Origin: Escherichia coli
GTDB taxonomy: Bacteria > Pseudomonadota > Gammaproteobacteria > Enterobacterales > Enterobacteriaceae
Assembly: GCF_003991155.1 (NCBI RefSeq)
Contig: NZ_CP031293.1
DNA length: 64,000 bases
Strand: one strand, 5' to 3'
Shown: positions 10,922 to 63,047 of the stretch, piece after piece
Layout: each line of letters begins with the position of its first letter
Position numbering within the stretch: position 1 is the stretch's first letter
Position numbers and translations under genes: made by a program
The notes under the pieces: generated by a model
What the model saw: only the letters and a program-made list of their open reading frames with translations
Told to the model about the DNA's origin: nothing
Database searches by the model: none

Positions 10922-12196
<1,275 letters not shown>

Positions 12197-29429: not shown

Positions 29430-31416
<1,987 letters not shown>

Positions 31417-37826: not shown

Positions 37827-40800
37827 TTATTTGATCTGCGCGTGCATTTCCTGCACCGAAATTACTTTTTCAGTCGCATCGGCATTCAGCGCCATCGCGG
37901 TAGCGAAACCACCGTTCAGGGTGGTGTCATAATGCACTTTATATTGCAGCGCACTGCGACGGATCACGCGGGAGTCTTCAATCGCACGACGGCCTGAGGT
38001 GGTGTTGATGATGTAGGTATATTCGCCATTCTTGATGCGGTCCTGAATGTGCGGACGGCCCTCATGCACCTTGTTTACCAGACGCGGATTGATACCCGCT
38101 TCGCCCAGCACAATCGCCGTGCCGTGGGTCGCATCCAGCTCGAAGCCCTGTTTCAGCAGTTTTGCCGCCAGGTCCACCACGCGTTCTTTGTCGCCTTCGC
38201 GCACGGAAAGCAGCGCACGACCGTGTTTCTTCATGGTGGAGTTGCTGCCCAGCTGCGCTTTGGCAAACGCTTCAGCGAAAGTGCGGCCCACGCCCATGAC
38301 TTCCCCGGTAGAGCGCATTTCTGGCCCTAACAGCGGGTCAACGCCCGGGAATTTATTGAACGGCAGCACCACTTCTTTCACCGAGTAGTACGGCGGGATA
38401 ACTTCTTTGGTTACGCCCTGCTCGGCCAGCGTTTTGCCTGCCATCACGCGCGCCGCCACTTTCGCCAGCGGTACGCCGGTGGCTTTGGAGACGAACGGAA
38501 CGGTACGCGCCGCACGCGGGTTAACTTCAATCAGGTAGACTTCGTTGTTTTTCACCGCAAACTGCACGTTCATCAGGCCGCGCACCTGCAATTCGAAGGC
38601 CAGTTTCTGCACCTGCTGGCGCATCACATCCTGAATTTCCTGACTTAAGGTGTAGGCTGGCAGAGAACATGCGGAGTCACCGGAGTGCACGCCCGCCTGC
38701 TCAATATGCTCCATGATGCCGCCAATCAGCACCATTTCGCCGTCGCAGATGGCATCCACGTCAACTTCTACTGCGTCATCAAGGAAGTGGTCCAGCAACA
38801 CTGGCGCATCGTTAGATACGCTGACCGCTGTCTGGAAGTAGCGACGCAGGTCAGCTTCGTCATAGACGATTTCCATCGCCCGACCGCCGAGAACGTAAGA
38901 CGGACGCACCACCAGCGGGTAGCCAATCTCTTTCGCTTTCTCAACCGCCATTTCGATGGTGGTAACGGTGGCGTTCGCCGGTTGTTTCAGTTTCAGACGC
39001 TCAACCGCATGCTGGAAGCGTTCACGGTCTTCCGCACGGTCGATGGCATCCGGGCTGGTACCGATAACCGGTACGCCAGCCGCTTCCAGCGCGCGCGCCA
39101 GTTTCAGCGGGGTCTGACCGCCGTACTGGACGATAACGCCTTTCGGCTTCTCAATACGCACAATTTCCAGCACGTCTTCCAGAGTTACCGGCTCGAAGTA
39201 GAGGCGATCGGAAGTGTCGTAGTCGGTAGAGACGGTTTCCGGGTTACAGTTAACCATAATGGTTTCGTAACCGTCTTCGCGCAGCGCCAGCGAGGCGTGT
39301 ACGCAGCAGTAGTCGAATTCGATACCCTGACCGATACGGTTCGGGCCGCCGCCGAGCACCATGATTTTTTCACGGTCGGTAGACGGATTCGCTTCGCACT
39401 CTTCTTCATAAGTGGAGTACATGTAAGCGGTGTCGGTGGCGAACTCTGCCGCACAGGTATCCACGCGCTTATAAACCGGGTGCAGGTCATACTGGTCGCG
39501 CAGCTTGCGGATTTCTGCTTCACGCACGCCCGCGAGTTTTGCCAGACGCGCGTCGGCAAAGCCTTTGCGTTTCAGCTGGCGCAGGAAGTCAGCGTTCAGG
39601 CCAGTGATGCCCACTTCTGCGACTTTCTCTTCCAGACGCACCAGCTCTTCAATCTGTACCAGGAACCAGCGATCAATGTTGGTCAAATTAAACACACCGT
39701 CTACAGACAGGCCCGCGCGGAAGGCATCAGCGATATACCAGATACGCTCTGCGCCTGCATCTTTCAGTTCGCGGCGAATTTTGGTCAGCGCTTCCGGATC
39801 ATCGAGGCTGACTTTCGGGTCGAAGCCAGTTGCGCCCACTTCCAGGCCGCGCAGCGCTTTTTGCAGGGATTCCTGCTGCGTGCGCCCAATCGCCATCACT
39901 TCGCCAACCGATTTCATCTGAGTGGTCAGACGGTCGTTCGCCCCGGCGAATTTCTCGAAGTTGAAGCGAGGAATTTTGGTGACCACGTAGTCGATGGACG
40001 GCTCGAAGGAGGCCGGAGTACGCCCGCCGGTGATGTCGTTCATCAGTTCGTCGAGGGTGTAACCCACCGCCAGTTTCGCCGCCACTTTAGCAATCGGGAA
40101 ACCGGTCGCTTTCGACGCCAGCGCCGAAGAACGCGACACGCGCGGGTTCATTTCGATAACAATCAGGCGACCGTTTTTCGGGTTCACCGCAAACTGGACG
40201 TTGGAACCGCCGGTTTCAACGCCGATTTCACGCAGCACCGCCATCGAGGCATTACGCATGATTTGATATTCTTTGTCGGTCAGCGTTTGGGCTGGCGCGA
40301 CAGTGATGGAGTCACCGGTGTGGATGCCCATCGCATCAAAGTTTTCGATAGAGCAGACGATGATGCAGTTGTCGTTTTTATCACGCACCACTTCCATCTC
40401 GTACTCTTTCCAGCCGATCAGCGACTCGTCAATCAGCAACTCTTTGGTCGGAGAGAGATCCAGACCGCGGGCGCAAATTTCTTCAAACTCTTCGCGGTTA
40501 TAAGCGATACCGCCACCGCTACCACCCATGGTAAAGGATGGGCGAATAATGCACGGGAAGCCCACGTCAGCGGCAACCGCCAGCGCTTCTTCCATGGTGT
40601 GCGCGATACCGGAACGCGCGGTTTCGAGGCCGATTTTCTTCATCGCTACGTCGAAACGGCGGCGGTCTTCTGCTTTATCAATCGCATCGGCAGTGGCACC
40701 AATCATGGTGACGCCGAACTCTTCCAGCACGCCCTGACGTTCCAGCTCCAGCGCGCAGTTCAGCGCCGTCTGACCGCCCATGGTTGGCAGCACCGCGTCC

Positions 40801-41048
40801 GGGCGCTCTTTTTCAATAATCTTGCGTACCACTTCCCAGTGAATCGGCTCGATGTAGGTTGCATCAGCCATTTCCGGGTCGGTCATGATGGTCGCAGGGT
40901 TAGAGTTCACCAGAATGACGCGGTAACCTTCTTCACGCAGGGCTTTACATGCTTGCGCGCCAGAGTAGTCAAACTCACACGCCTGACCGATAACAATCGG
41001 GCCCGCACCCAGAATCAGGATACTTTTTATATCTGTACGTTTTGGCAT
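37827..41048 (-). CDS. carB: Carbamoyl-phosphate synthase large subunit
   Basis: 1073-aa ORF beginning [33 protein letters not shown]; two ATP-grasp halves. Confidence 0.97.
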
Positions 41049-41065: not shown

Positions 41066-42214
41066 TTACTTAGCGGTTTTACGGTACTGCTCAATTAACG
41101 CGATAAAGTGGTCGAACAACGGCGCGGCGTCGTGTGGACCAGGGCTGGCTTCCGGGTGACCCTGGAAGCTGAACGCCGGTTTATCGGTGCGATGAATCCC
41201 CTGTAACGTACCGTCGAACAGGGATTTATGTGTGACACGCAGGTTTGCAGGTAATGTTGCTTCGTCCACCGCAAAACCGTGGTTCTGGGCGGTGATCATC
41301 ACCACGTTTTTCTCAACATCTTTAACCGGATGGTTGCCGCCGTGGTGACCAAATTTCATTTTGATGGTCTTCGCACCGCTCGCCAGCGCCAGCAGCTGAT
41401 GACCGAGACAGATGCCGAATACCGGAATATCGGTTTCGAGGAATTTCTGGATGGCGGTAATGGCGTAATCGCACGGGGCCGGGTCGCCAGGACCGTTGGA
41501 GAGGAAGATGCCGTCCGGATTCATTTTCAGCACATCTTCCGCAGAAGTTTGTGCCGGAACGATGGTCAGTCGACAACCTCTATCCACCAGCATACGTAGG
41601 ATGTTGCGCTTGGCACCAAAATCATAAGCCACGACGTGGAACGGCAGCTCGTCTTCTTTCTTCGCTTCTGGCAGGCCGCCGGTCAGCGTCCAGCTCCCTT
41701 GTGTCCAGCTATACGTTTCTGCGGTGGTCACTTCTTTTGCCAGATCCATGCCGTTCAGACCTGGGAACGCGCGGGCTTTTTCTAACGCCAGCGCCGCATC
41801 CGGGTTATCGCCCGCGATAATGCAGCCATTCTGTGCGCCTTTCTCGCGCAGTAAACGCGTCAGCTTACGAGTATCGATATCAGCAATCGCCACGATGTTA
41901 TGGCGCTTCAGGTAAGAAGAGAGGTCTTCGGTATTACGGAAGTTGCTGGCAATCAGCGGCAGGTCGCGAATCACCAGACCTTGTGCATGTACCTGAGAAG
42001 ATTCTTCATCGGCGTCATTAGTGCCGACATTGCCAATATGGGGATAAGTAAGAGTAACGATTTGACGAGAATAGGAAGGATCAGTGAGGATTTCTTGATA
42101 ACCGGTCATTGAAGTATTGAAAACGACTTCCCCAACCGCCGAACCTGTTGCCCCTATGGCCCGACCGTGAAACTGGGTTCCGTCTTCCAGAACCAATAGC
42201 GCTGACTTAATCAA
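41066..42214 (-). CDS. carA: Carbamoyl-phosphate synthase small (glutaminase) subunit; TTG start
   Basis: ORF-track frame extends to 42241; start placed at the TTG giving (M)[20 protein letters not shown], 382 aa; SD GGAGGG upstream. Confidence 0.93.
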
Positions 42215-42225
42215 AACACCCTCCA

Positions 42226-42264
42226 GAGAATATTCACTCACTTTATTTGCATATTAATTCACAA
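42226..42264 (-). promoter_or_regulatory. carAB P2 promoter with tandem ArgR (ARG) boxes
   Basis: Minus strand reads TGTGAATTAATATGCAAATAAAGTGAGTGAATATTCTCTGGAGGG immediately upstream of the carA TTG; two TnTGAAT-N8-ATTCAnA-like boxes. Confidence 0.8.
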
Positions 42265-42587
42265 TGATGACGTAAATCAATGCAAATCTGCTTACCGACG
42301 AATTTCTGGCAAACGGCGGCATTCTGGAGATATGGGCGCTAAAAGTCAACTTAATGGCGGGATTTTTTATATTATTTTGTGGCTCATGCATGTTTTACAG
42401 GCATTAAGCGACAAAAAGATCATATAACATGTTCTGGAAAACGCTTGCGCAGCAAGAAGATTGCATGAAATCAAAATGAGCAGAAAAAAGTGGACCAAAT
42501 GGTCAAAATTTACATTAAAACAACAAAAACAGAATGCAAAACATGTAATTTTCGGCATTTGCATTAAATTTAAAAGCATAACACTAA

Positions 42588-42620
42588 AAATAAAAGGGCC
42601 AAAAATTAAAGCCCTTTATA
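42588..42620 (-). terminator. Rho-independent terminator downstream of dapB
   Basis: Minus strand AAGGGC-TTTAATTTTTG-GCCCTT hairpin followed by a T-run. Confidence 0.65.
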
Positions 42621-42669
42621 TTCAATGAATTAAATGTGTTATTTTTGCATCACTATACATATTTTGTGG

Positions 42670-44637: not shown

Positions 44638-45588
44638 TTAATCGACTTCACGAATATCGACACGCAGCTCTTTCGGCACTTCGAAAACAATGTTTTCTTC
44701 ACGGCCTTCCAGCGGAATGGCTTCACCACCGCCCAGCTGCTGCAAACGTGCCACCACATTCTGCACCAGAATATCCGGAGCCGATGCGCCCGCAGTCACG
44801 CCGACGCATTTAACCTCTTTCACCCACTCTTCCTGGATATCTTTCGCATCGTCAATCAAAAACGCGCGTTTGCCCATACGCTGGGCCAGCTCCGCCAGAC
44901 GGTTGGAGTTGGAGGAGTTTTTCGAACCGACCACCAGCACCACTTCCGCCTGTTCTGCCAGGGCGCGTACTGCTTCCTGACGGTTAGTCGTGGCGTAGCA
45001 GATGTCATCTTTGCGCGGACCGACAATTTTCGGGAAACGTTTACGCAGCGCGTCGATCACATCAGACGTGTCATCCACCGACAGCGTGGTTTGGGTCATA
45101 AAGGAGAGCTTCTCTTCGTTTTTGACCGTCAGTTTCCACACATCGTCTGGCGATTCGACCAGATACATTCCCCCTTCCGGGTTACTGTACTGGCCCATCG
45201 TACCTTCCACTTCCGGGTGCCCGGCGTGGCCGATGAGAATAGATTCTTCGCCACGGCGACTGGCGCGGGCGACTTCCATATGCACTTTGGTCACCAGCGG
45301 GCAGGTGGCGTCGAATACCGTTAAATCACGGCTTTTCGCTTCGTTACGTACCGCCTGAGAAACACCGTGTGCGGAGAAAATCAGGATCGCGCCGTCCGGT
45401 ACTTCGCTAATCTGCTCAATAAAGATAGCCCCACGCTCGCGCAGGCTATCGACCACGTAGCGGTTATGCACCACTTCGTGACGGACATATATCGGTGCGC
45501 CGTAAATGGCCAGCGCGTTTTCAACAATGCTGATAGCGCGGTCTACCCCGGCACAAAAACCACGCGGGTTGGCCAACAGGATCTGCAT
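44638..45588 (-). CDS. ispH: 4-hydroxy-3-methylbut-2-enyl diphosphate reductase
   Basis: ORF-track frame 44638-45672; start placed at [19 protein letters not shown], giving 316 aa. Confidence 0.95.
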
Positions 45589-45589
45589 G

Positions 45590-46039
45590 TTACGCCTCCA
45601 GTGCCGGATCGATTTCCAGCACTTCAATATCAAAATGAACGGTCTGCCCGGCCAGCGGATGGTTGAAATCAACGGTAATAGAGTCGCCGTTAATTTCGCG
45701 GATCACGCCAGGCATCTCACTGCCATCCATTGCGGTAAAAAGCATGATTGCGCCAATTTCTGGCTCGCCTGCATCCATAAATTCACGGCGGGAGAAGTAC
45801 TGAATCAGGTCCGGTGACGGCACGCCAAACGCCGCATCGGGCTCCAGCGTGAAAGTGGTTTTATCGCCCACTTTCAGCCCCAGCAGGTGTTGCTCCAGCC
45901 CTTCAGAAAGAGAAGCATCGCCCAGGCGGAACAGTGCCGGTTTACCGTTGTTGCGGGTAGACTCGGCGGTGGTGCCATCGTCGAGTTTTAGCGTGAAGTG
46001 CACCAGGACGGCGCTATTGCTCTGTACAGATTCAGACAT
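45590..46039 (-). CDS. fkpB: FKBP-type peptidyl-prolyl cis-trans isomerase FkpB (SlpA)
   Basis: 149-aa ORF beginning [24 protein letters not shown]. Confidence 0.95.
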
Positions 46040-60961: not shown

Positions 60962-61469
60962 ATAATATGCTCTCCATTCATTGTTTTTATGGTTCCATAG
61001 AAATCAATACATCAGATAATTCATTTTGATTAAGAACGACTCAGAAAGTATATTTAAAGGTGAATGGCAAAGCGTGATGGAGATCGCAGATTACTTTTAC
61101 CCCCGGGTGTGGAGGTATCGTGTTTCAAAAAATGTGTCGATTTTAAATATCACTCATTGATTTATAAACATTTTTCCTCACAAAAAGAAAATTCAATTCT
61201 GTACAAGAATATTTTGTATCTTCTATTACTTTCTCCAGTAATAACTCACCATTCAGGCATAACTTAAACCTCTTGTTCATAATCTCAACTTTTGTAAATG
61301 AAAACGCACATAAGAGTTAAAATAAACAATGTACTAAAGATTGATTACGCAAAAATGCGAGGCGTCTTCAGGATTAGAATCGATAAAACAGAATGGGTTA
61401 AAGAGAGCGATATAATAGCGGCGGGTGCTTGAGGCTGTCTGTCTCAGGCATTAGCTGAACGGCAGATAG

Positions 61470-61540
61470 AGAAAAGCCCCGAGTGATATTTTACCATCAA
61501 CCCGAGGCCCCCTATATGCAGAACACATGTAGAGTGCCTC
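61470..61540 (-). ncRNA. sokC: Putative SokC antisense RNA (approximate)
   Basis: Placed by analogy with hok/sok loci, where Sok is antisense to the mok translation-initiation region; boundaries not determined from the sequence. Confidence 0.3.
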
Positions 61541-61725
61541 TTACTGACCGTAAGGTCAAGGAGAAGAGAGCAATGAAGCAGCATAAGGCGATGATTGTCG
61601 CCCTGATCGTCATCTGTATCACCGCCGTAGTGGCGGCGCTGGTAACGAGAAAAGACCTCTGTGAGGTTCACATCCGAACTGGCCAGACGGAGGTTGCTGT
61701 TTTCACGGCTTACGAATCCGAGTAA
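61516..61725 (+). CDS. mokC: MokC, regulatory ORF overlapping hokC
   Basis: ORF-track frame 61483-61725; Met at MQNTCRVPLTDRKVKEKRA, running into the Hok frame. Confidence 0.7.
   Translation: MQNTCRVPLTDRKVKEKRAMKQHKAMIVALIVICITAVVAALVTRKDLCEVHIRTGQTEVAVFTAYESE
61573..61725 (+). CDS. hokC: HokC small membrane toxin (type I toxin-antitoxin)
   Basis: MKQHKAMIVALIVICITAVVAALVTRKDLCEVHIRTGQTEVAVFTAYESE, 50 aa; Hok/Gef family. Confidence 0.88.
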   Translation: MKQHKAMIVALIVICITAVVAALVTRKDLCEVHIRTGQTEVAVFTAYESE

Positions 61726-62959: not shown

Positions 62960-63047
62960 CTTTTTTAAATTGCCCCTAGATGAATGCACGGGCGGAGAGG
63001 AAATTCCCCTTCGCCCGTGTCAGTATAATTACCCGTTTATAGGGCGA

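Follow-up and report, generated by a model that had tools for sequence, protein, structure and literature searches.

Translation of carA at a UUG codon behind a tandem ArgR operator in the carAB control region of Escherichia coli

Two questions arise at the 5' end of carA in Escherichia coli: which codon starts the gene, and what are the palindromes that lie directly upstream. This study addressed both in a stretch of 64,000 nucleotides of E. coli DNA (contig NZ_CP031293.1), hereafter called the window, in which the longest open reading frame at the locus (41066-42241, minus strand, 391 amino acids) opens nine codons upstream of a TTG codon. An original prediction, made from the sequence and covering 42212-42264, that is, one base upstream of ARG box 1 through the last base of the TTG, had proposed that carA starts at this TTG. 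The results support a carA start at TTG 42214-42212 and identify the two upstream boxes as the ArgR operator of promoter P2. We assign a probability of about 97% to the reading as a whole, in which the locus is the known carAB control region with a TTG start and an ArgR operator at P2. The coordinates of the features are collected in Table 1.

Table 1. Features of the carAB control region and adjoining genes in the window
Feature	Position	Strand	Description
carA initiation codon TTG (UUG)	42212..42214	-	K-12 position 29651
Shine-Dalgarno sequence GGAGGG	42219..42224	-	spacer of 4 nt to the TTG (5 nt counted from GGAGG, 42224-42220)
Unused in-frame GTG	42239..42241	-	27 nt upstream of the carA TTG; start of the longest open reading frame
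carA coding sequence	41066..42214	-	382 codons plus stop
carB, large subunit gene	37827..41048	-	
ARG box 2 AGTGAGTGAATATTCTCT	42225..42242	-	+6 to +23 of the P2 transcript
ARG box 1 TGTGAATTAATATGCAAA	42246..42263	-	-16 to +2 of P2; covers the -10 region and start point
Promoter P2	42247..42280	-	start point ~42247, placed 67 nt downstream of that of P1
Candidate P2 -10 TAATAT	42256-42251	-	putative hexamer
Candidate P2 -35 TTGATT	42280-42275	-	putative hexamer
ES003 RNA (Rfam RF02750)	42262..42314	-	53 nt, 5' end of the P1 transcript
Promoter P1	42308..42349	-	-35 TTGACT, 17-bp spacer, -10 CAGAAT; promoter scan
GATC site	42421-42418	-	
PUR-box-like sequence GCGCAAGCGTTTTCCA	42435..42450	-	pattern match
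RUT box TTGACCATTTGGTCCA (RutR site)	42491..42506	-	within the published footprint

Both domain content and operon context identify the gene product as the small subunit of glutamine-hydrolysing carbamoyl-phosphate synthase. CarA matched the PDB chains 1cs0_B, 1bxr_B, and related chains with an E value of about 1e-259 over residues 1-382, and the TIGR01368 profile scored 507 bits against a cutoff of 307. The CPSase small-chain N-terminal domain (PF00988) and the class-I glutamine amidotransferase domain (PF00117) were detected at 180 and 195 bits, respectively. The carB gene starts 17 nt past the carA stop codon, with carA immediately upstream in the same operon, and the minus-strand gene order (ileS, lspA, fkpB, ispH, rihC, dapB, carA, carB) is that of K-12 in reverse. 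A 751-nt stretch around the carA start matched 5425 of 5426 complete E. coli genomes, several of them at 100%.

Elsewhere in the window, the ispH open reading frame (44638-45672, minus strand) begins with a TTG, 28 codons before what we take to be the true start of that gene, and the longest frame thus over-extends ispH. Three small RNAs scored above their Rfam gathering scores, namely the sok antitoxin RNA (sokC; 61423-61575, plus strand, 117 bits), naRNA4 (10923-11002, plus strand, 77 bits), and tpke11 (62960-63037, minus strand, 70 bits), and such matches are expected in this part of the E. coli chromosome.

Read 5' to 3' on the minus strand, the start region runs TGTGAATTAATATGCAAA-TAA-AGTGAGTGAATATTCTCT-GGAGGG-TGTT-TTG-ATT-AAG. 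No in-frame ATG lies between the upstream TAA stop codon and the carA TTG, and the earliest start codon in this frame is a GTG, at which a longest-ORF reading would begin a 391-residue CarA carrying the additional residues MSEYSLEGV. The original prediction had described this upstream start as an ATG located 27 bp before the TTG and adding nine residues; the distance and the residues were correct, whereas the codon is GTG. Transcripts from P1 do include the GTG, with a leader of 73 nt. By contrast, its ribosome-binding context is poor. The 20 nt preceding the TTG were calculated to pair with the anti-Shine-Dalgarno tail of 16S rRNA at -9.8 kcal/mol, a value beyond the first percentile of the 20-mers in the window, whereas the 20 nt preceding the GTG yielded +0.4 kcal/mol, which amounts to no Shine-Dalgarno sequence. 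The GTG also sits within ARG box 2 and, with the start points taken from the literature, follows the 5' end of the P2 mRNA by only 6 nt. The TTG, in turn, is homologous to residue 1 of the protein, follows a Shine-Dalgarno sequence at a functional spacing, and has no better in-frame alternative.

The annotated and published starts agree with this assignment. The RefSeq coding sequence of carA begins at the TTG in K-12 (29651) and also in an E. coli genome that matches the window exactly. A 2018 review of carAB gives TTG as the initiation codon of carA (PMC6245113), and positions in the region have been numbered from "the TTG initiation codon" (PMC2952853).

The N-terminus of the protein was compared with known structures and family profiles. 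In the PDB, the chains of the E. coli small subunit have MIKSALL at their N-terminus and correspond to residues 10-391 of the long open reading frame, and the TIGR01368, NF009475, and PF00988 profiles start 2-6 residues after the TTG, none of them spanning the nine-residue extension. MSEYSLEGV thus falls outside every PDB chain and family profile that was found, which argues against the GTG and bears out the proposal that the extra residues are not part of the conserved N-terminus. Incomplete files from three N-terminomics studies (TRAINSPOTTER 2026, Giess et al. 2017, and the 2024 mBio riboproteogenomics study) contained no entry for CarA (P0A6F1) and no N-terminal peptide of it; given these files, and since the media used may have repressed carAB, this absence is uninformative.

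An alignment of CarA orthologues had been named as a check in the original prediction. A scan of species-representative genomes returned 80 loci ranging from Citrobacter to Vibrio, with no Salmonella among them; 78 were usable and, together with the window, made up a set of 79 genomes spanning Enterobacterales and Vibrionaceae. The results revealed that the start-codon column is TTG in 79/79 genomes, with no lineage changed to ATG or GTG, and that GGAGG stands at a fixed 5-nt spacer from the TTG in 78 of the 79. Neither the codon at -27 nor the frame that follows it is kept in this way. At -27, 48/79 genomes have a start codon (GTG, ATG, or TTG), a figure that could be taken to favor the upstream start, but the other 31 have a non-start codon, with TGA in 7 and GCG, TCG, CTG, CCG, and others elsewhere, and an upstream in-frame start is wholly missing in 18 of the 79. 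Across the same set, between 47 and 52 nt separate ARG box 1 from the TTG, so that the segment between -27 and the TTG carries indels that are not multiples of three and are incompatible with coding.

The partial conservation of the GTG has another source. In the genomes that retain the GTG, the TG of this codon belongs to the TGA(A/G)T half-site of ARG box 2, and the upstream GTG is kept by the operator half-site, not by coding. Taken together, these results effectively refute the GTG as the main start, and we consider it very improbable. A start-like codon can therefore be conserved as part of a repressor site and not through translational use, and a longest-ORF rule applied here would misplace the carA start by nine codons.

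The abstract of Piette et al. 1984 reportedly gave the carA start as "UUG or AUU" and left the alternative open. The AUU in question (42211-42209) directly follows the UUG and has the same Shine-Dalgarno sequence at an acceptable distance, 7-8 nt before it. What counts against it is that AUU initiates very poorly in E. coli. Published maps of initiating ribosomes in K-12, whose sequence is identical here, list carA at 29651 with INRI-seq peaks in 5/5 replicates in vitro and with an in vivo Ribo-RET signal that has a value of 421.9 and is flagged TRUE (Table S2 of PMC9825163). Initiating ribosomes are thus mapped to the UUG in these tables at a resolution of +/-3 nt, the tolerance of peak assignment in both Ribo-RET and INRI-seq, and peaks of this width fit AUU and UUG alike and alone cannot separate the two. 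The comparison across genomes does separate them. Codon 2 varies among ATT, ATA, AAT, AGT, AGC, ACA, ACT, AAA, and TTT in the 79 genomes (encoding I, N, S, T, K, or F) while the TTG is invariant, which favors the UUG over the adjacent AUU. Later literature (PMC6245113, PMC2952853) and RefSeq also settle on TTG, and initiation at the AUU accordingly has a very small probability in our estimate.

The same ribosome data bear on positions further upstream. In the passage of Table S3 of PMC9825163 that covers carA, the non-annotated initiation sites comprise a single row, a CTG at -12, and nothing at -27, which speaks further against the GTG. [quoted passage not shown] The corresponding codon in other genera is CTG, TTG, TCG, CCG, or TAG, and the CTG is probably not a real start. 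The upstream GTG, the CTG at -12, and the ATT at +3 were all rejected as carA starts on the basis of Shine-Dalgarno energy and lack of conservation. The TTG behind GGAGGG, as originally proposed, is thereby upheld by RefSeq, the carAB review (PMC6245113), the N-termini of the PDB chains, initiation mapping, and conservation across 79 genomes, and the checks made yielded no evidence contradicting it.

We next consider the palindromes upstream of the TTG. Compared with the consensus WNTGAATWWWWATTCANW, ARG box 1 has 1 mismatch and is the best match in the 64-kb window, and ARG box 2 has 3 mismatches. The gap between these two 18-bp boxes is exactly 3 bp (42245-42243), which yields a phasing of 21 bp and a unit of 39 bp. 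The proposal that two ArgR boxes stand immediately upstream of the start and overlap the promoter therefore held, with the pair spanning -16 to +23 of P2. In its palindromes, its 2-3 bp spacing, its overlap with the core promoter, and its conservation at orthologous loci, the pair has the properties of an ArgR operator.

Individual matches of this kind could be chance palindromes in AT-rich DNA with no operator function. The window does contain many single boxes at 3 mismatches or fewer. Their number was 11 compared with an expectation of 6.6, a count of 11 was attained in 9 of 100 shuffled sequences, and box 2 taken alone has 3 mismatches. The phased pair behaves differently. With a total of 4 mismatches at 21-bp phasing it is unique in the window, the runner-up pair having 9, and it was equalled neither in 200 Markov simulations covering the whole window nor in 3000 simulations at AT-rich intergenic composition. 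A tandem pair with 3-6 total mismatches was found 48-52 nt upstream of the TTG in 69/69 Enterobacterales sequences, among which the box 1 core TGAATTAATATGCA is nearly invariant; the pair in Vibrionaceae is weaker, with 6-11 total mismatches. The K-12 operator, moreover, has the same sequence, and reports on it include footprinting, operator mutations, and a 50-fold repression (PMC6245113). The reading as chance palindromes is already refuted by these published K-12 experiments, and we regard it as scarcely credible.

In the K-12 system, one arginine-bound ArgR hexamer binds the two 18-bp boxes, 3 bp apart, in a cooperative manner; mutations in the boxes relieve repression, P2 is repressed about 50-fold, and ArgR and RNA polymerase are mutually exclusive at P2 (PMC6245113). 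ArgR binding and arginine repression at the boxes in the window would follow by transfer from these reports on the identical sequence. One passage of the same review places the ARG boxes in partial overlap with the P2 -35 element (PMC6245113), whereas the coordinates derived here place them on the P2 -10 region, the start point, and the early leader (-16 to +23). This small discrepancy stems from imprecise wording or from the promoter having been assigned differently.

The promoter positions were obtained in two ways. A consensus promoter scan detected P1 but not P2, the hexamers of which fall below the scan threshold, and P2 was placed by the distances reported in the literature. P1 is reported to start 100 nt upstream of the TTG (PMC2952853), which corresponds to the G at 42314 with the initially transcribed sequence GTTTGCC, and a transcription start mapped at K-12 29551 agrees with this position (PMC4676190). 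The start points of P1 and P2 are 67 nt apart (PMC6245113). A terminator scan found no intrinsic terminator in the intergenic region, a result that fits the statement in the literature that attenuation is not involved. The PUR-box-like sequence is presumably the PurR site of the carAB control region. A PUR box has been described in this region (PMC6245113), and the RutR footprint extends from -268 to -296 relative to the TTG (PMC2952853).

The 5' end of the P1 transcript also matches an Rfam family. ES003 scored 87.4 bits against a gathering score of 37; it begins at the P1 start, and its 3' end lies 1-2 nt inside ARG box 1. In K-12, ES003 corresponds to 29551-29603 and is down-regulated 133-fold in stationary phase (PMC4676190). 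The RNA could be a fragment of the leader, or it could arise through pausing or a roadblock at the ArgR-occupied operator.

On the basis of these findings, the control region most probably works as already described for K-12, with the anatomy, conservation, and statistics computed in this study and with ArgR binding and the promoter start points taken from the K-12 literature. Tandem promoters would produce two mRNAs, P1 (~42314) one with a 100-nt leader and P2 (~42247) one with a 33-nt leader, and P1 would be controlled by pyrimidines and P2 by arginine. Arginine-bound hexameric ArgR on the two boxes would cover -16 to +23 of P2, so that P2 would be shut off by the exclusion of RNA polymerase. 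In both mRNAs, GGAGG(G) at 42224-42219 positions the ribosome, and initiation occurs at the UUG, 5 nt beyond GGAGG, where the initiator tRNA reads UUG as fMet to give the 382-residue CarA (MIKSALL...).

In the genomes compared, a weak UUG persists without exception in two bacterial orders. The comparison across the 79 genomes revealed that codons 2-16 of carA (42167-42211, minus strand) show the lowest synonymous variation of the gene, with a codon entropy of 0.67 bits compared with 1.17 bits gene-wide. Among 280 windows of 12 columns each, the first, in which the invariant start-codon column is included, has the lowest entropy. The low synonymous variation at codons 2-16 suggests a constraint on the mRNA adjoining the UUG start. 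A more speculative idea is that the UUG is under selection rather than merely tolerated, and serves as a translational throttle or regulatory point. Its basis is the invariance in 79/79 genomes, though a single T-to-A change would give AUG, together with the strong Shine-Dalgarno sequence and the constrained codons 2-16. If this idea were true, the conserved UUG might set the output of CarA or make initiation sensitive to the fidelity of initiation factors. We consider it unlikely on present evidence, and the same doubt attaches to the accompanying possibility that ES003 arises from P1 polymerase stalling at the ArgR-occupied boxes.

The features described above were compared with known systems. 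Other non-AUG starts in E. coli combine a near-cognate codon, the initiator tRNA, and a strong Shine-Dalgarno sequence, as carA does. In infC, the AUU start serves autoregulation, whereas the weak start codon of carA is not known to have a regulatory role. The carAB operon of Salmonella typhimurium was reportedly studied by Kilstrup et al. 1988 and Lu et al. 1992. [quoted passage not shown] The other Enterobacteriaceae in the 79-genome set share the same TTG, Shine-Dalgarno sequence, and box layout.

The closest comparison is with K-12 itself. The differences between the window and K-12 comprise 22 intergenic substitutions, all of them at -210 to -444 (42424-42658) with a cluster at 42553-42585, and three replacements in CarA, namely A167T, V284I, and E372A. 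These far-upstream substitutions are located within or close to the DNA to which the literature attributes contacts by IHF and PepA. No difference from K-12 occurs between -209 and +60 of the start codon, and the two sequences share the TTG, the Shine-Dalgarno sequence, the ARG boxes, the P1 GTTTGCC, the GATC site, the PUR box, and the RUT box. The K-12 carAB promoters, ArgR operator, and TTG start are said to have been described by Piette et al. 1984 and Charlier et al. 1988, 1992. Because the control region is identical over -209 to +60, the K-12 control-region experiments apply directly to the window. The TTG start of carA is already known from RefSeq and the literature, and the locus is the same system as that of K-12, not a relative of it.
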